A stretch of 48,994 nucleotides of DNA, the filler included, from Sphacelaria rigidula (taxonomy: Eukaryota), in assembly GCA_964200075.2 (NCBI GenBank). It is 2 parts of 2 records of this genome, joined end to end, with 100 filler letters (N's around TTAATTAATTAA, not from the genome) between each part and the next. Parts side by side here need not be neighbours in the genome. Positions count along the whole stretch, not along the records: positions 24,549 to 48,994 come from CAXNAA020000204.1; 1 more part is not named here. One strand, 5' to 3'. Positions 17,801 through 48,400 of the stretch are shown piece after piece (within the stretch, counting starts at the first letter, position 1; each line of letters starts with the position of its first letter). The notes under the pieces were generated by a model. That model had not been told where the DNA came from, did not search any database, and saw nothing but the letters and a program-made list of their open reading frames with translations. A program made the position numbers and the translations under genes.

Positions 17801-20800
17801 TACGGATCCATCCCGAGACAGGGGAGGGGTCAAACGTGTGGCGGGTAAAAACTGGTGGTGGAAGGGTTCTGTTCATGATTGTATCGCTCGACAAGAGAAA
17901 CCTACGTAATGCAGGAGGAGAGCGCGGGGCGCGCTCAAGCAAGCCGGCTGTTTCCCAACTAAAGGTGGGATCCATTCTGCTGGTTACCGTGTATTTGCGA
18001 TGCTCCATTACAGTACCGGAGAACGATTTTAGCCTCAACGTTCGAACTTGCGGTCTACCAAACGAGGGGAGCGGTGCCACGTGGCTGCTATATGGCCAGA
18101 AAAGCTGAGAGCACATACCACTATTGAGTATCGTTGTTGACGGGGCTATTTTTTCAAACTATTCAGACGTTTTCGAAAAAACAAAACGTAATCTTCGAAA
18201 ACTTGTGACAGCAGATGTCTCAACTAGGTCGAGGAATAAAACGATTCAAGACTGACTAGATATTACTCGGAAAATCCAGCGTTGGACTTGTCTTGGCGAC
18301 TCTTTTTTCAGAATCGGAAATTTTCCCGAGAAAGTAGGACAAATCTTTTCAACAAGTCCCATCAATAATGATCCTACGCAATGACGTGGATGAAGCACAT
18401 CAACTGAGATGCCAAAGCACTGTCATCTTTGGCATTTCTTTTGTCATGCAACAAGGTATTCTTGGGAGAGAAAAACATGCTGTCTACTGGTATCTCAAGT
18501 GTGTGTGTCCTAGCCATTATGGCGTCTCTTCCTACAGTACCGTGCGCCTGGCCGTCGGCGTTGCTTTCGTTTTCATGTGCTTGGCGGAGGTGCGGGGTTC
18601 TGGGTTTTGGGTATGCACGTTTGAGGTGATCGGTTTACACTGCATATGGGCCACGGGATGCTGGAGAACATTTGCACGCATTCAGGGCGCTGACAAAATA
18701 CTTTGCCACCATCCCTGCCGCCGCCCCAACCCCTCCCATTCAAACCGCAGTGTCAAACGTTGAGGGAGTTGGGATACTTTTTCGAGAGTACAGAGTCCCT
18801 TGGATGACGCGCAATGAGTCCGTCTTTGGTGGACCACTTGGCCGGTTCAACCGCGGTTGATTGCCGAAACGAGAGCTCTTCAATATAGAATCGCGTTGAT
18901 GTCCTGTGGACGGTGCGTAATGCATCTTTGAAAAAATTACAACATGCACGTTGATGAGGAATTCAAAACATAAACGCTGAAGCGATGAAGCGACCTGTTC
19001 GCGAGGTCAATCCGAGAAAATGATTCGACTGTCTGGCAAATTGATAGATGGGGTCCGTAAAGGTACTGGCATGAATCTGTGAACCAGAGCGGTGTCTTTT
19101 GTGCTCCTCCGCGAGGTCTATCCTGCTATCAACACAGAATTTTACGAATTGGGGATGGATTCTTCATTGAGGATGAGAAACCCAGATAATTAAAATCTTC
19201 GTATCCACACCAAATCTTAGAAATATGGTTCAATTTCTTCATTTGCTGGTAGCTATTGACAATAACTACACGCCATGCAAAATTTGATTTCGATAACCGA
19301 AATGTTGGGGTCCTAGATGATTAAGCATTTGGGGGGAATTTCGGCGATCAGATCGGATCATCTGAATGCCCCCGAATTGTTTTTTCACTTAGGATCCCAA
19401 CATGTCGCTTATCAGGATCCAAATTCGTACGGCGTGTAGTAGTTGTCAATGGCTACCTGTAGGTCAAGGAATGGAACTATATTTCGAAGATTTGCTGTGG
19501 ATACAGGTGGGTACGAAGATTTTTATTCTGCGGGTTCCCATTCTCAATAAAAAACCCATCCCCAATTTGAAAAATCCCGTGAATATTGGACACCTAGAAT
19601 CCCCCACAATTGTTTTTTTACCGAGGACCCCGACATTTCGGTTCTCGAAATCCAAATTTGGATGGCGTGTAGTAGTTGTCAATAGCTACTAGCAAGTGCA
19701 GAAATTGAAGCATACTTCGAAGATTCGGTGTGGATACGAAGATTTTAATTCTCCGGGTTTTCATCCCCAATAAAAGATGCGTCCCCAATTTGTAAAATCC
19801 CGTGTTTACACTCGATGCGCTGGGCCTGTCAAACATGGATCAGGGCCTCCTCGCCTTGAAAGGAGCTGGTATATCATCTCACGAATATCTTGTACCCGAA
19901 AGTTGAAACTTCTCCTTCGCTGGGGGTAGGTCAGAGGGGCAGGGGCAGATGTTCCCGTCTACTGATCCCCTTGCTCCACCCTACAGCTATGAGTACGCAC
20001 ATGATGATGTCCATTGCTATATAAATATAGCCTGACCAAAGCCTGACCTATAAACTCTTCCAGCTTCCCCTCGAATATCAGCAGGTACTCGTTGAAGAGC
20101 TCCTGATACTCCAGGCTGTGCTCCTCTGTCTTTCCTTCCGCCATTACCTGCCAATCAATAATATATTGAACACCCACACCGTTCATCACTGAGGGGCGCA
20201 GGGTCATCCTGAGTAACGTACAATGCTGCCTAGTGTAGCGGTGCATGTTGCACTCGTGGTTCGTATGCCTTCTCGTTGCACAAATATGCGAGTATAAAAG
20301 TAGCACGCCTGGTTGAACGCGGACGTGTACAGTAGGTATCGTCGGGACACGGCATTCCCAACATGGCATGTAAAATTGAAAACAGCGGCCAGCCGTAGAA
20401 CGCTCCAACTCTGGCTGGACTAACGTAAAATGTGTCTACAAGAGTGTAACTCACGACTGTGTTGTTCACTTAAGATGGTCGTTGAGCATGTATCTGTTGT
20501 GGCAGTCACAGTTGATACAGTGTGTAGCCATTTTCACCCGTCCGGCATACGCGGTATAAAAGGTACTGAGCACCACCACACTTGCTCCACTAACCGTCCA
20601 TAATATATGGGCTGATGGTGAATCAATCGCCAGCTCACGTACCTCGAACTTGGGCCCGTGCTTGCGGAAATACGCTCTAAAAACATCGAGGAACTCGTCG
20701 CCCCAGCAATGCTTAATCGCCTTGGCCAGCAGGCCTCCATGCGCTTCATCTTGTTCGTCATTGCCGTCTTTACCTTCACCCTCTTCGCTTGCTCGCTTCG

Positions 20801-24448: not shown

Positions 24449-24548
24449 NNNNNNNNNNNNNNNNNNNNNNNNNNNNNNNNNNNNNNNNNNNNTTAATTAA
24501 TTAANNNNNNNNNNNNNNNNNNNNNNNNNNNNNNNNNNNNNNNNNNNN
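24449..24548. other. Artificial contig-join linker N44-TTAATTAATTAA-N44
   Basis: Exactly 100 bp, symmetric, with a six-frame stop linker in the centre. Confidence 0.92.
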
Positions 24549-33900: not shown

Positions 33901-36424
33901 ATAATATAATGATGCGTCTCGGGAGAGTCCAAGAACACATGTACAAAGTTTGGTGGAGAAACTCAAGAACCTTATACAGGTTTTCTTGCCTTGTCGTCAA
34001 ATTCACCCCAAAAGACGTTTCCATACTAAAACCAAGTAGTAAGAAATTGGACGTTCCGAGCCAACGTCCTCCACAAACGCGCAAACTTTCACGCTGTCAT
34101 CAAGAGTTAGATCTCAAGACTTTGCATAAATATGCCATGTATCATTACGCAACTTTTTACGGACAATGGTTTCTGTACTTCTTTACTCTTTCACCGTTTT
34201 TCGGGGGTCTGACGGGATCGAAGACGTTTTTCGAAGTAGTCTCCATGGTGGGACCCCAGAAAAACGGCACTACGATTATATTTCAATTTTTTCGTCAACT
34301 ATCTGCCTCCGCATAGCCCGAGGATGGGCCCGAAAAAATTCTTGTCGCAAAACTCGATAAACTGATGATTGAAAGTCCATGTTCACGTCAAACAAGGCAC
34401 AAAAACACCGTTTTGGTACTATCATCAAGTAGTTTTCTGTTTCACCGCGGCACGACAGGGTCCAGTGCACAAAATCGAAGAACCTCACGCCGTTTTGACG
34501 AGTTAGACCCTGAAATCTTGTACAACTGTGCTTCGAGTCACTGGGCAACTTCGAAGGAACGGTTGTTCTTCTCGTTACCGTTTTGCGGGGGTTCGATTGG
34601 ATCGAGGTTTCCCCCCAAAAAATGGGACCCCGGAAAACGGTGAAAAAGTCAAGTGAAAAAAAAAAAAAAATGACCTCCGGAAGTTGCATGATGACCTATA
34701 GAACATTCGTGCAAAATTTCAGGGTCGAACTCCTTCAAACGGCTTGAGGTTTTGCCGATGAGTGTTTTTCGGGTGATACGCGTGAACCAGCCTGGATAAG
34801 TACTTTAATGATGAAATATTCAATGAAATAATTGATCAACTGGTTGGTCGGTGATGAATAGGTAGTTGTTCGACTACGTCATTTTTTTTTTTTGGAAAAA
34901 ACAAACACAATGTATCGATGATTTCGCCAAGTGAATTTTGGTGCTCGATGTTTCAATGGAGGAGCATGTCGCATATCCCCTTTTGAAGGGGTGCACTATT
35001 CGACTTCAGGACCGAACAACGTCCATCACATAGGCTCATTATCTTGAACCCGTGGCGTAGAACACCCATAGCAAGTGGATTCATTTACTTTCATCACATG
35101 TTCGGTCCATACGACGACGATTACGAGGAACCTCGACAGTGACGCTGTTTCGAGCAATAAAATTTACATGCAATGTCTACACAAACATATCTTCTGCCCG
35201 TATGTATCCAGTACACCTAGATCCTAACCGAATCGTACCTTTACGACCTCCTTCATCATCTCCGCCGACTGGACGTTGAACATCCCGTGGATGTCGTGTT
35301 TGACGTTCACGCGCACTTTCGAAAGCCCCGCCCCTTCGGGCACGTCCACCTTGAACACAAGAACACCAACAAAAACGCACACAGACATGTACGAATGTCC
35401 CACGGTTAGGACGAATCATTACGACTACTCATCACCGAATCCACGATTCCTTCGGCCTGATAGCCCAAACTTGAGAAAAAAGTTGACCGCTGGTCCAAGG
35501 GGTATCGACGCCAGTTTTGCGCCATTGAACGTGTCTGAGTTGCGTGTACCTGGGTTGCAACGCTGAAGACAACGCGCAGGAGTTGATTCATACGAGTCGA
35601 ATCAATGGTACTAAAACCAAGTAATTTCCAGACAAATCATCATTCGTCCGACCCTTGGAATATACGAACTAAACTAAGGGTTCGTTGACCCCACTTTTTT
35701 CATGGAAACATATATGCGCAGGTGGTGAAAAACAAAATCTAACGTATACACCAGACCCGTCAAAAAGTGTATTGCGTGCTGTATGGAAGGCAGTGCACAT
35801 TAGGCAACGTAATCTATTGCCTAGGGGGTGGTATGAACTGACTCAACAAACAAAATCACGAAAAACACTTCGTCGACAACTTGTCCGAGCAGCTCTCGAA
35901 AAAACTACCGTAGCAACCGCAAAAAAAAAAGAAGGAAAAGGATTCATTCAATGATCGCTTCCCTATACCTTTGTCATCTGCATTTATATTCATGTACGTG
36001 AATGCTCATCATGTTGGTGAATGTTTCCTGACACGGGCATGAAAGCGGCTTAGACATATCGCTCCACAGAGATGTGCGTCTCTCTCGACGGAGGAAGACA
36101 CCACCTGCTTTCTGTGCTCTTCGAAAAAGACGCCAATCACCACATGCCATGTCGTTGTGTGCATCCATACCTTGAAAGTGCCAATTGTGGGAGAGGTGCC
36201 GGCCGGCAATTCCGCCGTAGTATCGTACGTGGCCGTAAGCGTGAACGGCTGGTCCATGTTGAAATTCACCCGCCGCACCTGTTCTCACCCAAGACGAGAA
36301 GATGGGATGAAATGGTGGTTATGTGTGTCGGGGCGGGGGGGGGGGGGGGAAGTGGGGAAACGCCCTGCGGTTTAATTTCGGGCCNNNNNNNNNNGGATGG
36401 TGGAAAGGAGGGGGGGGGGGGGGG

Positions 36425-36465
<41 letters not shown>

Positions 36466-39400
36466 CGGAAGTGGGGAAACGCTCATCAGTTTAATCTCGG
36501 GCCGTCTTGGATCATTGAAAGGTTGAAATGTTGTCGGCGGCTGTTCATCACAGACCCTTTCGGGGCTGTGTTTCATGGGACATAGCCAGAAGAAGGGTTA
36601 TTTTGGTTGCTATACAAAGATATTCGAGGATGCCAACAGAAGATCCCGGTATGGTTTGCCATGGTACGGAACCATGTTCGCAGCACTCCGGTATCTGTGG
36701 TCGGCAAGGACATTTGCCGATCAACTGCCCCCATCATAACTTTGTATATACCACACTTTTAGGCAGTATATCGTACGAAACAGAAGGTCCCCTTTCATCT
36801 CCTGCGTTTCGCTTTTCGTCTACAACTCATTCTATTGCACACTATTCAGCAACAACCTCGAAATATTCCATAATTTTCTTCACAGCTGCAAAAAAAAAAG
36901 TAAGCCGGATAGTGCCGATCCGGTATCGAGCACAAACCACTGCGCGGACAGGTTCTTTTATTGTTTAACGCACATGGACGGTATGAATTTCAACCTCAAA
37001 ATAAAGTGTGTCAAAACAGGCGCAGAAGGTTACACTCTACACGACTACACTTTCTCCGATCGTAGCTGTTCAAATCCTAGATTACATTTCACATCGTCGA
37101 ACAGTATAACGCGTACAGCATGGAATCTGTTGTCTGTTGCAATAGTAGAGGTGTGCCGCTGGAGAAAAAACAGAGGTTGTAACCGGTTTTTGGAAACTCC
37201 AAGAGGCGTTAACCGCTTACGGTTATGAAAAAAAACGGAGTATTCTTTGCCGGTTGAACCGGTTTACCGGCAAAAGAAAGCGTTATTGTGGCGGTTGAAC
37301 CGGTTCAAATGCGAAGTTTGAAACTGGTGCTTGTAGCTCGTAGCTCGTAGCTCGTAGCGAAAACGTGACTTACGACATGCCACACGCTACACGTCACCCT
37401 TACAACTTCCACATAAAGTCAGCTCGCAGAGACCACAGTACTGCGGAGGTGGCGCACATACTTGCATACTCGAGACTGCCCCCATCTTTGTTTTGGGGGT
37501 ATTCTCGCTCACTACTCTCCGATAGATCTCGTAAGTGTCGGTAGATCTTGGTAAAATGAGCAGATAATCCTGAAAAAAACAGTGCCCGAGTGGTTTTACG
37601 TAGTGTTATCGGGTGGTACGAGCAGATACCTCGTTTATAATGAGGGTATTGTTAACCGTGAAACAAAGTTATCCGGCTCTGGTGCAGTGAGTATGTAAAA
37701 TTCCCCAAAAAATAATCTGTACATTTTCGCACAACAACGATCGGGACAGGCTCGATCGATTTGAATTCTTCAAAGAGTCAGGATCTGTGCTGAAAAATTG
37801 CAGGACCCCCGATGACCGGTCAGCCCGGAAGTCACTCAATATTGAGTACAGTTGATTCTTGTTTTCATTGAATGTGGAGCGGATACAAGTATATTCAAAT
37901 CCCTACTGTGATGGGCGGTGACAAGCGGAAGAACCTGAGAAAATCGCCGATGACCGAGAAATCAAAAAAGAAATGGTTCAGGTTCACACCACTACCTACT
38001 ACTTCAGAGTATAGTTTTTATTTTCTACTCTTGACACCATCTAGATTTCACTTCTTCCATGTGTACCAATCCGGATCATGAGCTAGCTTATCTGGACCCT
38101 TTTCCCCATGTCTTCTCCCTCGAGCGTTGGACTATGAGCACGTATAGTTAGCGCTAAGGTAGCGGTTTGACTTCTCGGCCCCTGCTGTCACGTTTTGTGC
38201 TCTTCGACCGCGGATCTGAAAGTCTACTTCGATTAACTTCTTCACGATGCTCATGATCTGTCGAACGTGCGACAGATTTCTTCTCTTCGACCGCGAATCT
38301 GAGAGTCTCCTCCGATTGACCATTTCACGTTGCTCATGATCTGTCAAACGTGCGATAGATTTCTTCGCATATACCGTCACCTGTTTCTTCCTACAATCAA
38401 CGTACAATCCACCCTCGATCGGAAAAAAAGAAGCAGATATCTCAGCGCAACATTGAAAGCGGACTGATTCTAGAAAAGATTACATGTCACGTACACATCA
38501 GTTTTAATCTTTCTCCTTCGTGAACTACGATATGATTGACTTTCCATGGAGACAAGGAATCACTGCACTCGACACTGAGGTGCCCAGTGAACAGGTAATG
38601 CGTGTGTGTGTCGTCATATCATCTACTCTAGACGCCGGTCCCCACCACACAGTATATGTGGGCACATTAGCCAGGTTTACACAGCGCGAAGGTCAACAAA
38701 AGAGTTTTTACCATTTATATTGCTTCAGTACTTCACGTACATCCGCATCTGCAGAACAACCGTCGAGAGTTTTGAGGTTACCAACTGAACCACCGCGGCG
38801 GACGGCTCACGACGTTCCAAGATTTGATCGGCAGGTCATAACAACGCCACAGTGAGATAAGCTCAAATAATGACACGAGTAATCCACGCCGTTTACTTCC
38901 CGCGGTATTTTCCAAACATCGAAACATACCTTCGGCGTCTCATCTCCCTTTGCGAAAATGTTGAGCGAGTTTCCAGCGGGGGCCGCCTCTGATGCCTCTT
39001 CTTCACCCTCTTCTGCGAAAAAAAAAAGAGGGACAAGCGAGGGAAAAAAAGACGAGGGCGGCAAAAAAGGGGAGCACCGCACCGCACAAAACACGGGCGG
39101 GGCGGGGGTTTCTTAGGAAAACAAGATAAGTCATGTATGCAATGCGATGTCGGCGTCTCCTCTTCCTGAAGATGTTTGTGAAACAAGTAGTGTGACAAAA
39201 AATCCTACCGACGTTTCTTGGACGCACGTCGAACCCCACCCACTGTCAGCGATATCATACCTCGTACGAAGCATGTTCAGAGGTCACGGACCTCATTCAC
39301 TATTTTTTTCAACGTGGGGTCCAAAAGTATGGCATCCTAATGCCATGAATATCTTCTCACGCTTCAGAGGTCCCGATTCTCGACTTCAGTTTTGTGGAGT

Positions 39401-42400
39401 AGTTTTTCACAACCCTTGGAGCCCGGGACGTCAGACACGTGGGCGATCATGAGCATGGTGGTGACATCCATACCCTGAAGAAAAAATCGACAATCAAAAA
39501 GTGTACTGTGTACAGTATCGAATATTTCGCCAGATGAAACAGACGATATTCCATAATGTACACAGTATACTTTTCAACAATAAAAAAATTGTCCCGTGTG
39601 TGGAGACAGTACATCCTGCTTGGGCGGGAAAGGGGCGTGCACTCATGATCTTGCATGCCGTGGTCATTCGAGTAAAGACCTCGTACCCTTGGGGCGGGAC
39701 GGAGCACGCCGGGTCTTTAAAATGGGGGGGGGGGAGAGGGGGTGAATGGATCCACTTCCTTCAGAAGAAGGACGGAAAAAAACGGAGCGCTCGCAACGAG
39801 GTGAGACTATATGAAACTTAGTACAGCTTGCTTTGATGTTTTGTAACCTCAGTTCTACTGACTTCTTCCCCCTGTGACGAGACGATGAAACAAGCGCAAC
39901 AAGGCGTGAGAATGAAGGCGAGAGATCAGACTGCGCCCTCGTGTAGGGACGCGGCGTGTGCAGCAGTGCCGTTACAATCACGTGCTCGCGAGTGGGTTCA
40001 AGTACCCGCGACAAACGCGCCGCCTAGGTAGCTCGTGCCAACTGTCATCACATCTCCTTGCTCCATTGTATACTGCGGGCACGGCGCGCTGCAAAACCTC
40101 GGGCACTTAGCTTGTTATTACATCGAGACTCGGCACAAACCATTTTGGTACCTGTAGCAATAAAAAATTTTCACCGCAAAATTTCACGGTTAGGACGAAT
40201 TATCACGGGTTTGAATCACCAAATCCATGACTTCTTCGGCCTGATCGCCCAAAAGGGATCCACACAACTTCCGCGCCATTCCACGTGTCTGGGCTGCGTG
40301 TATCTGGGTTGTAACGTTGAAAACGAAGCCTAGGGATTGATTCGTGCGAATCGAATCACCTACACTATAACCAAGTGATTTTCAGACGAATCATTATTTG
40401 TCCCACCCTTGCACAATTTTCTATATCGTCCGTCACGTCCATGTGGCGGCACAGTACGTGCTTCAGAAATACGTCCCCAGGGCCCGTTTCACGGAAACGA
40501 TAATAATGAGTGAAAGCGTGAGGATCAAACACGATAAAATAGAACAGCTTAGGTGTAGCAATACCATTTCACGTTTTTTGTTGCGCCATCATCAAAATTC
40601 ATCACTTTTCAACCGAACATATTTTGCATAAAAACGGAGGTATAATCTGATGTAAGTGTAACAAAAGAGAACACGAACTGGTTTGCCACGAATAAAATGT
40701 TTGTCACCCTCATTTCTCCAATACAAATACCACTATCATTACTTCTTTCGATAGATGAGACGGAGTCTCATCATTAATTTGAAGGTGTCACGCTCCCACA
40801 TCAACACATTGAGTGTGGCTTCTGCTGGCGGGGCGAAACCTTGGCAGGTCCCACTCACGGGTAAGGAGTTCAAACCCTCACAGCGATGCATAAGAAGCTC
40901 ATCGGCAACATGTTCCGTCGCCCTGACGATACAACAGAACTCGTCTCATAAGCTATATCGTGGATGATTTGATTCGCTACTAGTGCAGCACGGGCGAACG
41001 GTAGATTGATAAGTCAAACGATTAGTCGGTAGCATGGTGGTCGATGCTCAGATGCCATGACCTCTACATTTTTCAGACTGTCTACGGAAACACAACAGAA
41101 CAGAATAGAATAGAAGCGAAGGGAGGCGAGGTGACGTGAGAGATCAGACTGCGCCCTCGTGTAGGGACGCGGCGTGTGCAGCAGTGCCGTTACAATCACG
41201 TGCTCGCGAGTGGGTTCAAGTACCCGCGACAAACGCGCCGCCTAGGTCGCTCGTGCCGACTGTCATCATATCTCCCTCCATGGTTTACATCGAACACACC
41301 ATGAAAGACTCAAATTGTTGCATCAACTTCCGCTCCAAGACCTACTACAATATTGCCACTTAGGGAGGCGCACCATATTTGCTGCATATTTTACGTTTTT
41401 GGGCGTTATGTTCTGGAGGGTTGCTACAAAGTTGTCCAAGACTTGCTCTACAAAAAGTCAACACACGGAGCATAGCTTATGCTGCTGAGGTGAGCCCCCC
41501 CGTAGTTTTGACCCATGCGTCAGGAGATCATCGATCCGTCGCCCTACTGAGGCAACATGACATGTTTGAAAATGATGAACCGGCTGATACGTTGTCACAA
41601 CAGCACTACTGTAGTGGGATGTATATTCACCAGAACGAACGAATTCGTTCATCACGATGGTCGTTCTATAGATATTATGGCCTCCACCTTTTCCTTCCCG
41701 TAGTCGGTACGGTTACAGATAAGCAATTGAGAACCAGACAAGAGATCAGACTGCGCCCTCGTTTAGGGACGCGGCGTGTGCAGCAGTGCCGTTACAATCA
41801 CGTGCTCGCGAGTGGGTTCAAGTACCCGCGACAAACGCGCCGCCTAGGTCGCTCGTGCCGACTGTCATCACATCTCTTTCGTATCGCGAGTACGAACCAT
41901 ATTGAGTTTTGATGAGGCTTGCATCGTCTACTGGTCGACTAACCCTACACATCTAAACTTGGCACTACTTGACGCACCAAAGAGTGACGCAAATCATGTC
42001 AGTGGACCTCAATGCCATCGATGTCCGAGACGGCAAATGTGGCGGAGTATTTCACTGCGGCTTCCGGTAATCACACGGAGGCAGCCGCGACTCACGCCGC
42101 ATACAGTACCTGGTGACCGATCACAAATATCTTCCGTGGTTCCTCCATGATAGGCTCCAATCATATCAGTGCAGACATTATAGATGTTCAACAGTAAAAT
42201 TGATGTGGGCGATGAACGACGCCGTGTAGCTGTGACCCCGGATATTCTCACGAAACGGCGGGAAGGCTAGTGGCGTCGCTTCGGACCGTATATGTCAGGC
42301 TCATCTCCGAATAGTTTGACAGGCGAATGATCCGAGCATGCCCAAAACTCGACATATTTTGCCGGCTAATGGTCGAAAATATATTTTTTGTTTTTCTGTT

Positions 42401-45400
42401 ACTCACAATGTACTAATAGTCATAACATTCGGAAGGCTGCGATTCGGCTGTGGAGGAGAAAATAATCGTTTTCTTCGACCTTCCATCGTCAACAGCAAAC
42501 CACACAAGAGATCTCGGAAATGAGAGCGAGCATGAACTCAGCCGTGTGACATTTTGGTCATGAGAGAAATTCCACGGTAAGGAGTGCACTTCAAAGCTTT
42601 CTGAGGCTGCACACCATGGCCCAACAGTGAGGGTCTCCTCAAGAACAAAATTGAACACCCCCAGCGTATAACTTTTCATCAGCCCGTCCCCGAACGAACG
42701 TCAATACGCCAAATGGGCTACGACGGCGTAGTGTGATATGACGAGAGTGCTCGCATGACACATCACACCGCGTGGCGCAGCGGTTGGAGGGTGCTAGGGA
42801 CTGTGCTGCTGCGGCCAACTCGACAAGCAACGAAGGAAACTGCTGTATGACGTTTCGCACACTCTGGATGATGGCAACAGATGTTGTCAAGATGTGTACG
42901 GCGTCCAGTGTGAAATTTATCGCACATCGCATTAGACGCAGTAGTCCGATACTGTAAGCGGTACACTTTTTCACGGTTCGGATCAATTATCGACGGTTCG
43001 AATCACAAACTCCACGATTTTTTGGGTCTGATTGCTCGAAAGAAGAAAAAGTTCACTGCTGGTCAATAAGGTCTCTATTACAGAGGAACACTGTTAGGGC
43101 GCGTCTTCTGACTTTTTTTTTTTCGATCGAAAAAACGAGCGGTGGAATAGAGTCAGGTGAAAAATTCTCGTCTTGTCGTTGGGTCCGGATAGATTTTCAA
43201 GCTCCCAATCCAAAAAAGCCAGTGAAATTCGTGAAACGGTACATGGTCTGTACTGTTTGTACTGCTTGCAAGTAGGGTGTCTTGAGTGCGTGTGTGCATG
43301 CTTCGCGCAGGAGAAGATGAAGCGGAAGCGGACAATGTGCAGTGCAAACAGCTCAAGACTATCAGTTCTTTCTGTTTACAATGGATCTTGAAAATAACCC
43401 CAGCAACGTGCAGCGTTGTACTGCCTGCATTGTCCTTGGTTGTGCACTTAACTCGGTGGCCCACCGTACCGCGCGCAGCTCCGTCCCTGATGACTACCAT
43501 GAGAGAAGATGCGCAAGTTCTCGCCAACAAAAAATCAACTCACTATAATCTTGAGTTGAAGCCTTCGGGGAACATGAATGCGGTGGAACTCACAGATAAC
43601 ACATTTTTTTTTCGATCGAAAAAAAAAGTGCTGAGCGAGCCCTTAGTGGAAACAAAAAACGCGCAGTGGGAATGATGATTATAATAAAATGCAGTTTTTG
43701 CGCCATCCCACGTGCCTGAGGAGTGCCCAACTGGGTTGCAAGGCTAAGAACGAAGCCCACTACTGATTCATAGAGTTCGAATCAACCACATCGAAACCAA
43801 GTAATTTCTAGACGAATCATTGATTCGTCCGACGCATGCACTTCCCGACAGAGCAATCTCGTGTTCAGGGTGTAATATTGGTGCCATTACCTCCGGCTGT
43901 TTGCCACTTCACCACTCACTGTCTCGAGTAGCGGAGCTAGCCTGTATATCCTCCAGATGATCACTGACTACTGCGGGTTAGGGATCAGACTGCGCCCTCG
44001 TGTAGGGACGCGGCGTGTGCAGCAGTGCCGTTACAATCACGTGCTCGCGAGTGGGTTCAAGTACCCGCGACAAACGCGCCGCCTAGGTCGCTCGTGCCGA
44101 CTGTCATCACCTCCCAGCTTCCGTGACGTGGTGAACACTTTTCATTTGTGTCATTTGGGATCAACTTTCATGACAAAAGTGTCGACTCTCTTTCGTGGAT
44201 TGATTTTTCGGACCCCAGTTTGTTGGGCAATGTTTTTCGGTTAGCTGCGAGCAAACCACATCAATACTCCAAATCTCTGGTTGTTTGAATTGATATACCG
44301 CCTTTCTGCTCACATCGGGACACACTGGTATGTAGCATGGTCGTCGCTGCTCAGATACCATGACCTCTACATTTTTCAGACTGTCTACGGAAACACAACA
44401 GAACAAGAGCGAACGGAGGCGAGGTAAGAGATCAGACTGCGCCCTCGTGTAGGGACGCGGCGTGTGCAGCAGTGCCGTTACAATCACGTGCTCGCGAGTG
44501 GGTTCAAATACCCGCGACAAACGCGCCGCCTAGGTAGCTCGTGCCAACTGTCATCACATCTCCCAAAAACAGGTTACATCATACCTTGCGTACAGTAGGG
44601 ATTGTCTGTCGCAATAGACGCGGCAGTAGTTGTTCATACTGTACACAGTACACTTCTTGACAGTAAATTCTGGTGTCCAGGACGTGTTGAAAAGTACGAT
44701 TCGTGAAGTATTCCACATACCACACGATTTGTTGTAACTAATTTTCTTTCCCCGTATCGTTGGCCAATGCCCTGTGTTTATCAAAACAGCAGACGGTTCA
44801 ATCGGGTTGGTCCATACGTCCATCGCGGACACACATAAAAAGAGATCATAAATACCACACAAGAAATATACACGAGTTCCATCACACGGGACGCGGAAAA
44901 AAATAGAGTCGAACAATTCCGGAGAGGCGGGTTGTCAAATTCAAAGAAGGCAAATCGTCTAATTCAAAAGAGGTGATTAATGATAAACTCGAGAACAAGA
45001 AACAAAAAACTCACCCCCCGTTGCCATGCTATCCCCGCCCGAAGATGCCTGGCCTTCCCAACTGAGGCAAATGGGGTAAGGCACCCTCTCCACAACCGCA
45101 AATTCCTTCACCTTAAACCTGCGTCATGCATGCAAAGAAGATCCATCCACTCAATATAAACGAGTCATCAATCTCATGGTGGATAGAAACATACTCGAAC
45201 TACTCATTCGCTTCCTGTATTACAGAAAAAAAAATATATATATATATATATGTTCAACGGCATAACATCAACATATGTGCTACGAAGTCGACGATCCTCC
45301 GGCGAAAGATTTAATTTGGCAATTCCCCACACAACAGGTCATGAATGTATACCGATCCGGATAATTGGCCACCCCCCATTTTTATGTTTGCTCCTTACGG

Positions 45401-48400
45401 CGCCGGACGATGAGCACGCCGAGTAGTCCAAAGGTTGCGCTTTGTATTTCCCGACTCAGTGATCACATATTTTGTGTGTTTGGATCAACGGACTCGAAGG
45501 TTTCCTTTGATAATTTGTTTCAGATAGATCATGATCCGTCCAACGTGTGCAATTTCCCCACTCGGGAAAATAACGATTTATGATCAATACATGCGATGGA
45601 CAGAGAATGTACCGGGTCGAAGTCAGCATCTCGGGTGACATGAAGTAAAATATGAATTTCCTATTCTTGACTGAATAAAAATCTCGGGCAGCTAGAATCA
45701 AGGGTATTCGACAGTCAAATCGGCATGAGTTTCACTTGCAAAAAGTATCCATGATCCAGATGGACTACCCCCGCGGTTCAGGGTTTAGTCTTCTGTTAAA
45801 AATCGGCATCAATTTGAAGTGAGAAAAAGTATGCATGATCCAGAATGACTAGTCTCGCGGTCTAAGGGTTAATGCTCCCTCATGATCAAGATCACAAAAA
45901 ATATATATTGAAAACATGTCCCGACTCGCCTCTTCGACAGCATGGCGCACTGCAATGCACACCCTCTCGCAATACTCTCATCGGCGTTCATTGTGCAGCT
46001 CAGCCCGAAGTTGATCGCCGTCTTGTCCCGTCCCAACAGCTCTGACAGGTGCGACTTGATCATGGGCACTCTGCGTCCAGTGACGAAAATAAGAAGAAAA
46101 AAATGTTTTGCAACAAGATAAAAAGATGGCAGAAAAGAGACACGGCGTAATGAGAACTCAGGACTTGAACAGGGACATGAAATCGTCGCCTTCAATTCGA
46201 GACAGCAATAAATACGTACTCAGACACATCAGAGACAAATGGACGGAGAGAGCAGACCGAAAATCTTGGTCGACGGTCTCTGTTCTCCGATGACGAAACA
46301 CGTGGCTAACGCTTGGAATGGGGAAGCCATGTCTGTTCTTAATAATCGACAAGATGAAGATGTACCGGGACAGAATCTGCTCAGTTAAATTGGCGGGCGA
46401 AGCCCTCATCACGAGCCAAACCTCCTACACACAGATGAGGGTAATCCAAAGTGAAATGAAAGAAGCGCGACTGTGGCCGAGTGTTCAAAGTCGGCACTGG
46501 CCCAAAATTGAGGATTTCTCCACAATGAGACGGAGGACTAAAACATACACATGTCCTGTTCCACTAGTGTACCGCAGCGAAAACACTCAAGCCCCCTATT
46601 ATGTGTTCGAGCTTCCACCGTCTGTTGTGGTATATTCACGTATCGCCAAGACGGTGTGGATGGCATGAGCTGCGACATTATCGTTGTGTTCGTCTCTGCG
46701 GGAGACACTGTCAGTCAGGACGCAGGGCTGGCTGCACACTGTTGTACGCTTGACGGGTGTGTTGACTGTTTCGTCTACAATGAAACAACCGAAGCGCGGT
46801 TCGTTGCTGCGACGCTCCTGCTAGTGCTGTGCGTTGGGCGCCTGTACTTTGACGTACTACTGTATTATATATGATACTGTATTGGGTTGGAACGCGCCAC
46901 GAGTTGGATCGCACCAACGCTTGGTTTGATATGTACTCCACTGGCGATTCCTGAGCGAAATGGAGCCATCTACATGGTGATTAAAATCTGTTTAGCTCCA
47001 AATGCAGTCTACTCAATGATCAACGATGAATCTATTCGAACGCACTTCGACGTAAAGCACAGCTCGCGATGAGCAATGCTACGGTGGGGATTCACTTTTT
47101 TGCGCAAAGTTTTGTCTGTTCCAGGGGCTCCAAACAATTCTAGATGCACGAGATGATGGGCCAGGGCATCCCCGTTTGCAAATTCTTTCGGGATATCCCC
47201 ATAACATTGGAATAGTAATCCTGACGTACTCACACATTCCAGACGTCGTGTTTTGGATCAGATGAAGGAATCTCAAGGATTCTCACGTCGGAAGGAAATT
47301 GCACACTGCTATCGTAGCAAGAGTTGACATAACATTTCACCGTGTCACCAAGGCAAGTGAGCTTAAAAATAAATCGAGTACGCGCTGACCAATTGCCCGA
47401 CATCCAACGGAAACGAGTGGAGTGAAATCTGGAAAGGCGAAGAACGGGCAGCCCGAACAGGATATTACGCTCAAAAGCGTACTGCGTACAGTATCGACTA
47501 TTGCGCCTTTTGCAATAGACAAGATATTTCATACTGTACGCAGCACATTTTTACAATAGAATATCATGTCCAGCGTGTGAAATAAAAGAATGGAGGAGAA
47601 GTGCAAAGAAGGGAGCCAGGTCGGACGAAAAAAAATGGAAAAACCAGAGCAATTGAAAGTCGGGTACTTGCCTCGTACTGCCCCCTACGATCTCCACCGA
47701 GCCCAGCTGTTCCTTAGTTACACCCGCCTCTTGTAGAGCTCTCAACACGGGAGCGTCCATCCGACCGACCAGCGGCTGAACAAGCTCCTCGAATTGGGTC
47801 AGACTCAGTCGCCCGTTGTAGTCCAGCTGTGTGAGTGCCAGACGGTAACAACAACGACGGAAAAAAAAGTCGGGGAAAAAAAACGCATCAGCCACCATAA
47901 TCCACGAAAAACGACGGACACGACGCCCGTTGCATTCGATCCGTTTCGCACTATACAGAGGGGAGGAAAAAGCAAGCGTACAAGGGCAGGTAAACTGAAG
48001 TATACTCAATTGCACGGGTATCTTGAAAGTTGTACTCAAAAGTACGCAAATTGCAGGTGAGGTTTCGAGGGTCGCTTCCCAGTGATTTTCTTGGTACGAC
48101 TCCGACACTCTACCCTGATTTGAGTACCTCACGTGAGTGTTCAAAACCTTCCGTAATTAAGTACACTTTACTCGACCTGCCCTCGCGAACGTAGCAGAAT
48201 GAAGCACAAAAAACATCAAATCAAAAATCGAACTGCGCATCAGGAGTCATAGTCTACACGAACGAGAGATGGGTGCCAAACAAGCGTACAGAAGATGGGA
48301 ATATAAAGAAGGGTGTAGAAACAAAAACGCACAACATGACACACAGGAAACGGGGGCAACGCAGACAGCACCATACTAGCCATTATATAAACTAATATCT

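Follow-up and report, generated by a model that had tools for sequence, protein, structure and literature searches.

Here, we analyse a 48,994-nt stretch of the genome of the brown alga Sphacelaria rigidula (GenBank assembly GCA_964200075.2), hereafter the window, the right half of which carries on the minus strand a gene of the Hsp70 family with 15 exons in one open frame running from 48877 to 24840. One of the exons is 100% identical to a public protein labelled Sphacelaria rigidula and 80–89% identical to other brown-algal proteins, and Pfam assigns HSP70 to that public protein and to one full-length relative. We take the gene to be an Hsp110, given the long acidic insert and the C-terminal extension seen in the alignment together with the general features of the family. 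One of its introns holds five near-identical copies of a 126-nt box C/D-type RNA, some of which are flanked by splice signals of their own. An earlier note on this DNA had proposed that the copies sit in mini-introns nested inside the coding intron, so that one small nucleolar RNA (snoRNA) would be released per lariat, and that non-coding or poison cassette exons between them could couple snoRNA output to splicing of Hsp110 linked to nonsense-mediated decay (NMD).

The intron in question (39013..45014, minus strand, 6,002 nt) is of the GT-AG type, in phase 1, and lies between the coding exons 45015..45118 and 38930..39012, both on the minus strand. The upstream exon belongs to the in-frame exon chain and its GT donor starts at 45014, while the downstream exon is placed by the same chain and by an RNA joint. 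The RNA data are contigs of three long-RNA runs of one study (X1, X6 and X7), with X2 as a DNA-like run; 15 of 117 joints and 32 of about 14,450 pieces were listed, and contigs drop rare variants, so that absence of RNA cover is weak evidence. The joint between 39012 and 45015, which skips 6,002 nt, has depths of 1054, 989 and 847 in X1, X6 and X7, respectively, and 0 in X2. This direct junction is in frame and is the mRNA-contig junction in 3/3 RNA-like runs, which bears out the earlier claim that the flanking exons join in phase. From 45015 to 45117 the upstream exon is covered by an RNA contig with 0 other letters in 3/3 RNA-like runs, and the spliced mRNA contig joins 47672, 46070–45929, 45117–45015 and 39012 directly; the DNA-like run has no such joint. 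A missing coding exon between 45015 and 39012 was rejected, given that relatives have no extra coding segment there and that the RNA joint is direct. Directly upstream of the snoRNA intron are two consecutive GC-AG introns (46071–47671 and 45119–45929, minus strand), both borne out by RNA joints in 3/3 runs. Public protein P0003 reads through the second of these and is without exon 45015–45118; its gene model looks wrong at this place.

Measured from box C to box D, each RNA copy spans 126 nt on the minus strand: copy 5 at 44432..44557, copy 4 at 43985..44110, copy 3 at 41746..41871, copy 2 at 41144..41269 and copy 1 at 39926..40051. The copies are 97–99% alike, with pairwise differences of 1–4 bases, and no sixth copy was found in the window. 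A box C (RUGAUGA) near the 5′ end and a box D (CUGA) near the 3′ end are present in 5/5 copies, as are the four inner pairs of the terminal stem that closes the two boxes. Copy 4 has one A-U to G-C double change in this stem, and stem covariation is not above shuffles (51–64/500, in five near-identical rows); likewise, the fold of the whole RNA is no more stable than that of shuffles (z −0.16 to +1.4). Rfam returned 0 matches at the gathering score and, at E ≤ 10, weak matches far below gathering, none of which spans a whole copy. A tRNA identity was rejected (ARAGORN, 0), and so was that of a high-copy element: DNA depth is 66–110 in four bins with copies 2, 3 and 5, which is near the single-copy level, versus 10^3–10^5 over transposon pieces. 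A scan for ribosomal RNA (rRNA) guide potential, made against eukaryotic rDNA loci of at least 1,400 nt among L001–L055 with their parts placed by motif and none of them brown-algal, gave matches of 10–13 nt with G-U pairs, none both conserved and adjoining box D. L001–L055 comprise at least 55 eukaryotic rRNA-motif stretches in contigs filed under bacterial or archaeal genomes, and their presence there is contamination of those assemblies; the rRNA motif occurs 0 times in viral contigs, and snoRNA patterns 0 times in both metagenome and viral contigs. On these features the RNA is best called an orphan box C/D-type RNA, and it probably works as a snoRNA.

Two further observations concern the RNA and its surroundings. 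Copies 5 and 1, the outermost of the five, have two linked changes in common (44546/44536 and 40040/40030), which fall on paired positions of the first hairpin and turn C-G into U-U. Copy 5 carries changes like those of copy 1 but a flank like that of copy 2, and this mosaic is suggestive of gene conversion between copies. In another intron of the Hsp110 gene (35010–35110, minus strand), a 10-bp inverted repeat surrounds a TGTGATGA motif; this locus has no box D at the stem and was not picked up by the C/D scan.

To score splice signals, a weight matrix derived from the 15 donors and 15 acceptors of the gene itself was applied to every GT and AG across its 14 introns, which gave a background of 1,400 GT and 965 AG; scored leave-one-out, the real sites range from 3.7 to 11.9 for donors and from −4.6 to 11.1 for acceptors. 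All motifs that the earlier note had described beside copies 5, 2, 1 and 3 are where it had placed them on the minus strand. A candidate nested mini-intron of 200 nt surrounds copy 5 (44385..44584, minus strand): its donor AAG/GTATGA has the GT at 44584, 27 nt before box C, and scores 9.8, and its acceptor AG ends at 44385, 47 nt after box D, and scores 9.0. The corresponding candidate around copy 2 is 218 nt long (41082..41299, minus strand), with the donor ATG/GTGTGT at 41299, 30 nt before box C (score 7.8), and an acceptor AG that ends at 41082, 62 nt after box D (score 8.2). Copy 1 is followed by an AG-free pyrimidine tract and a CAG acceptor (39872..39925, minus strand) that scores 10.2; the CACAG ends at 39872, 54 nt after box D, and the pyrimidine content of the tract (0.75) is reached by 2.4% of background 40-mers. 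A complete donor–acceptor pair within the larger intron, as in nested splicing, is thus found at copies 5 and 2 and not at copies 1, 3 and 4. The signals at copies 3 and 4, already described as weak in the earlier note, do not exceed chance: the donor of copy 3 (ATG/GTTCGT at 41897) scores 2.9 and its acceptor 3.0, and the best donor of copy 4 (5.6) falls on box C itself, with an acceptor of 4.1. Directly after copy 4 (43972–43984, minus strand) there is a CTAAC branch-like motif, with a CAG (score 2.0) that, only 14 nt past box D, lies too close to be convincing.

The donors of copies 5 and 2 are in the top 0.1% and 0.6% of the background GT, the acceptors of copies 5, 2 and 1 are in the top 0.4%, 0.7% and 0.1% of the background AG, and the scores of all these sites lie within the range of the gene's real sites. 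None of 13,243 background anchors (which overlap and hence are not independent) combined a donor of at least 7.8 within 45 nt upstream with an acceptor of at least 8.2 within 100 nt downstream. Inside the intron, windows beside the copies hold 3 of the 6 acceptors that score at least 8.2 and 2 of the 5 GT donors that score at least 7.8 (binomial p 0.013 and 0.016). Because copies 2 and 5 have one duplicated flank in common, we also counted them once, which gives p 0.049 for the acceptors and 0.13 for the donors.

The acceptor of copy 1 is met by an RNA contig. Record 19 of run X7 (39872..40029, minus strand, 158 nt, depth 2.7) runs from inside copy 1 to the acceptor and terminates on the G of the CAG at 39872, just where an excised intron would end. 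Its first base follows a base that separates copies 1 and 5 from copies 2–4, and this start beside a variant base suggests that both kinds of copy are present in run X7; DNA-run pieces likewise break 30 nt from such variant bases (41239 and 41793). An RNA end at 39872 would be the simpler reading of the contig, given that a spliced fork would be expected to extend it by 30 nt. Of the seven listed low-depth intronic contigs with 0 other letters, four lie in this intron, and one of these four ends exactly on a predicted acceptor, for which chance is ~0.002 with uniform ends; none of the other six low-depth intronic contigs ends at a predicted site. Another 6 listed RNA pieces with 8–11 other letters were set aside, as they are likely to come from other repeat copies. 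The contig is a hint that the acceptor at 39872 is used at times. RNA depth is 0 in the bins 44298–44608, 40877–41187 and 41810–42431, which is weak evidence in contig data, and repeat-derived contigs obscure the bins 39322–40565 and 42743–44297.

For a cassette exon to form, each internal acceptor would have to be followed by a donor. Within 300 nt after the acceptors at 44385, 41082 and 39872 the best donors score 5.6, 5.0 and 6.3, none of them strong, and in background 300-nt stretches a donor of 5 is reached in 52% and one of 6 in 31%. With downstream donors at background level and an mRNA contig that joins straight across, the poison or non-coding cassette exons suggested earlier are not supported. 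The strong donor–acceptor pairs instead face inward around the RNA and, as no strong donor follows the acceptors, the signals define introns, not exons. Ratchet sites for recursive splicing were not found either, given that the acceptors at 44385 and 41082 are followed by AC and that at 39872 by GG. An AG/GT site does lie 100 nt before copy 1 (40146..40176, minus strand; AG ends at 40152, acceptor 7.2), where the donor scores 3.8 in its native form and only 2.0 if regenerated, which is not above background (3 such sites in the other 13 introns). Inward-facing pairs and the lack of a ratchet site together favour small nested introns over poison exons or recursive splicing. A stwintron, described as an inner intron that interrupts the donor, branch point or acceptor of the outer one (PMC8469720), was rejected, as the inner sites are at least 430 nt from the outer donor and at least 859 nt from the outer acceptor.

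Taken together, the signals are confirmed for copies 5, 2 and 1, and nested mini-introns are plausible but unproven; as an account of copies 5 and 2, and in part of copy 1, they are the best-fitting reading. We give nearly an even chance to intron-within-intron splicing that frees single copies and leaves the mRNA unchanged. The array would have arisen by DNA duplication of a unit made up of a donor, the C/D RNA, a pyrimidine tract with acceptor and a tail of ~55 nt, a unit that is seen in duplicate at copies 2, 3 and 5 and has left weak traces at copy 1. For copies 5 and 2 we infer that the donor–acceptor pairs would be recognised as small introns and removed first, each small lariat carrying one RNA that exonucleases would trim to box C and box D. 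Copy 1 would leave via its own acceptor and a more distant donor (candidates at 40858, 40360 and 40151, all weak), after which the shortened outer intron would be spliced from 45014 to 39013, with mRNA and protein unchanged. Copies 3 and 4, with sites lost or lacking, would stay in the remainder and be freed less well or by another route. The earlier idea of one snoRNA per lariat could hold for the pairs at copies 5 and 2 but breaks down at copies 3 and 4. An acceptor with its own close donor would not steal the donor of the coding exon, which may explain why copy 3 is without both. Nested splicing predicts a straight join of the coding exons, with which the mRNA contig agrees, the outer junction being unchanged in the mature mRNA in 3/3 RNA-like runs of one study. 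The earlier note had held that finding only the direct 45015–39012 junction would speak against internal splicing; nested excision leaves this same final junction, so that seeing it alone does not refute nested splicing.

Several observations nevertheless weigh against nested splicing. The splice matrix draws on no more than 15 donors and 15 acceptors, no branch point could be assigned (the scan for one was uninformative) and, in the 45 nt upstream of copy 1, the best donor scores 2.1 and so is not strong. The intron's strongest donor and two of its three strongest acceptors lie away from any copy (donor 39260, 10.6; acceptors 39759 and 39475, 10.4 and 10.0), and hence splice score alone does not show use. 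As a control, a pseudo-exon of 214 nt (39261..39474, minus strand, sites 10.0 and 10.6) contains stops and adjoins no copy; its bin (39011–39321) has a residual RNA depth of 0.5 in 2/3 runs. The contigs gave the direct 45015–39012 joint and, with 39872, the end of one contig, whereas neither 44584/44385 nor 41299/41082 appears among the joints listed (15 of 117). The depth of 2.7 of that one contig is 0.3% of the mRNA contig depth and represents few reads in one run, and the contig ends on the opening base of a run of five G, at which thin coverage could also break off. In addition, no homologous locus turned up among 80 Hsp110-related loci retained from 191, in which the RNA has no counterpart better than E 2; the best of them reaches 77% identity over part of the exon, and none is brown-algal by identity.

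The history of the flanks adds further points of this kind and sustains the rival explanation that survives best, namely that the sites are mostly unused relics, duplicated along with a snoRNA that lay near the end of an intron. The 6-kb intron would then leave as one lariat and the copies would be freed by endonuclease and trimming, or would partly persist as long RNA with snoRNA ends, and the locus would amount to a cluster of the ordinary intronic kind, made up of a new orphan C/D RNA. We regard this as doubtful on balance, with an appreciable share of the probability. A single duplicated flank of 91 nt, 89% alike between copies 2 and 5, contains the acceptors of both, which are therefore not independent. 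The tail after the copy-5 acceptor (44332..44384, minus strand) was duplicated with the unit and recurs after copy 2 (41029–41081) and, in diverged form, after copy 3, and all three are homologous (0/300 shuffles each). As the duplicated unit held acceptor and tail, the spacing in common is explained by descent alone. Decay is also visible: copy 3 lost its AG, reading ACT at 41702..41704 (minus strand) where the TAG acceptor of copy 2 aligns, copy 1 is without a near donor and copy 4 is without both sites. The body of copy 3 has 2 and 1 differences per 126 bases from copies 2 and 4 (98–99% alike); it lost its acceptor yet kept its body, and conservation of the body therefore does not need the sites. 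The flanks of copy 4 show no likeness to those of other copies, and those of copy 1 show a weak one, with 4/300 shuffles for the upstream flank against copy 2 and 9/300 for the tract against copy 5 (comparisons of its flank with those of other copies giving 9 and 110 of 300). The direct junction is the only one for this intron among the joints listed, and a precedent exists in Arabidopsis, where snoRNA clusters occur in single coding introns, endonucleolytic cutting being the presumed route for plant polycistrons (PMC2875012).

Relic sites fit less well with the donors. A strong donor stands 27–30 nt before box C in both copies 2 and 5 despite diverged upstream flanks, the 40 nt before the stem aligning no better than shuffles (56/300); the tract is kept at copy 1; and an RNA contig ends on 39872. 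No source exon was found for the tail either: it resembles the beginning of the next coding exon no more than expected by chance, and an origin as a relic of that exon was rejected (145, 893, 1276 and 1918 of 2000 shuffles for copies 2, 5, 1 and 3). The tail has no conserved fold (z −0.26, 0.17 and −0.02). After the common acceptor it opens with ACAGTCTGA (44376–44384 and 41073–41081, minus strand), which nearly equals the RNA's own 3′ end, including box D.

An NMD isoform is improbable. Here, pieces of the intron (for example 44771–44585 and 41447–41300) would be kept as non-coding exons while the small introns are spliced, and the resulting frameshift or stop would have the isoform removed by NMD and thereby uncouple snoRNA output from Hsp110 mRNA; human multi-snoRNA hosts use isoforms of this type (PMC4233243). 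Fair acceptors are available 187 and 148 nt before the donors of copies 5 and 2 (7.7 and 7.1), both pieces break the frame, the second has a stop, and the true acceptor is preceded at a distance of 248 nt by the strong donor at 39260; moreover, NMD would thin such an isoform and contigs would drop it as a rare variant. However, acceptors of at least 7 are present in 25% of background 300-nt stretches, the mRNA contig is unbroken across the intron at a depth of 847–1054 in 3/3 runs, and the bins with the tails after copies 5 and 2 are at depth 0 in 3/3 runs, again weak evidence from contigs. As the acceptors at 44385, 41082 and 39872 lack exon-defining donors, the NMD-linked coupling of snoRNA output in the earlier note finds no support. 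Very improbable, finally, is a separate non-coding host transcript that starts inside the intron on the same strand and has the sites as its ordinary introns: snoRNA introns between short non-coding exons are usual in fungi (PMC5033589, PMC3596301) and independent promoters have been proposed for Ectocarpus intronic miRNAs (PMC4513859), but no spliced contig of this kind is among the joints and pieces listed and the exons are not closed by strong donors.

The remaining features of the window concern its repeats and its assembly. The introns are filled with at least three families of short high-copy repeats, some of them with inverted ends and resembling miniature inverted-repeat transposable elements. 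They lie at 39497–39574, 42884–42970, 44587–44694 and 47473–47552 (group 1), at 40182–40414, 43696–43841 and 35401–35657 (group 2) and at 43116–43597 (group 3), and one of them stops 2 nt before the copy-5 donor. At 24449–24548, a 12-nt A/T pad with 44 N on either side marks an assembly joint, where the Hsp110 gene breaks off without its final exons; the left half need not be its true neighbour, and carries exons of a second intron-rich gene at ~20050–20800 (minus strand).

If nested splicing is true, mini-intron cassettes would raise snoRNA dose without touching the mRNA, and would be invisible to poly(A) sequencing and gene annotation. More broadly, and as a tentative proposal that we rate as somewhat short of even, a snoRNA gene could be a self-contained mini-intron cassette that can be duplicated anywhere in the coding intron of a highly expressed gene, here with an undescribed C/D RNA family as cargo; cassettes could be spliced before or after the outer splice, and intron-rich brown algae may use them generally. 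The five copies differ both in marker bases (44508 for copy 5, 41269 for copy 2, 41763 for copy 3, and 40040/40030 for copies 1 and 5) and in the splice sites that they have kept, and so offer a natural test of splice-dependent output. As far as the literature was found, nested splicing would also open a first way into snoRNA maturation in brown algae. Neither this RNA nor a mini-intron that carries a snoRNA inside a coding intron came up in a literature search that lay outside most subscription papers, and the available text of PMC13736004 and PMC4513859 has nothing on nested sites.

The closest parallels come from fungi, in which nested and recursive splicing frees snoRNAs from non-coding polycistrons, as described for Candida (PMC5033589) and for Debaryomyces, Yarrowia and Euascomycetes (PMC3596301, PMC5033589). 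The arrangement proposed here would be like those clusters in having several snoRNAs per precursor, each with its own splice signals and released one per lariat, and no stable exons between them. The fungal hosts, as these sources describe them, are non-coding and carry different snoRNAs in abutting introns (exons of 0, 1 or negative length), whereas the five near-identical copies of the present array share one coding intron with transposon pieces, are spaced by hundreds to thousands of bases, and in the case of copies 5 and 2 have AC in place of GT directly after the acceptor. Intrasplicing of nested introns is known from dystrophin intron 7 and EPB41 (reviewed in PMC4394429), with the same order as proposed here, in which an internal pair is used first, the outer one afterwards, and the final mRNA is unchanged. 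There it serves to shorten very long introns and the available text mentions no snoRNA cargo, while the present intron is 6 kb. Compared with canonical intronic C/D snoRNAs, the RNA has the box C, box D and terminal stem, lies on the sense strand of a highly expressed host and is shortly followed by an acceptor, but no Rfam family or convincing guide was found for it. In vertebrates, most C/D snoRNAs keep a set distance from the branch point that follows them (reviewed in PMC8162545); the 47–62 nt from box D to AG found here are shorter than that optimum (~50 nt to the branch point) implies, as given in the available text.

The known ways out of a shared intron differ between plants and mammals. 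Plant intronic clusters likewise hold tandem variants of one snoRNA within one coding-gene intron, as do the five in 6,002 nt here; they are thought to be freed by endonucleases, and the available text does not mention internal splice signals. Human multi-snoRNA host genes have NMD-sensitive isoforms (PMC4233243), and two snoRNAs left in one mammalian intron give long RNA (sno-lncRNAs) in place of mature snoRNAs (PMC4234469, PMC4233243), so that an organism dependent on splicing needs a cut between copies. In both those hosts and the present intron, the choice of splice sites would decide between a shared intron and single exit, although the human hosts, according to the same sources, include or skip a real exon in several percent of transcripts, and here no exon-defining donor or included exon was found. 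Several snoRNAs thus leave one intron by endonucleases in plants, as is thought, and by exon choice in mammals; if true, short introns nested in a coding intron would be a third route and would give intrasplicing a clear purpose.

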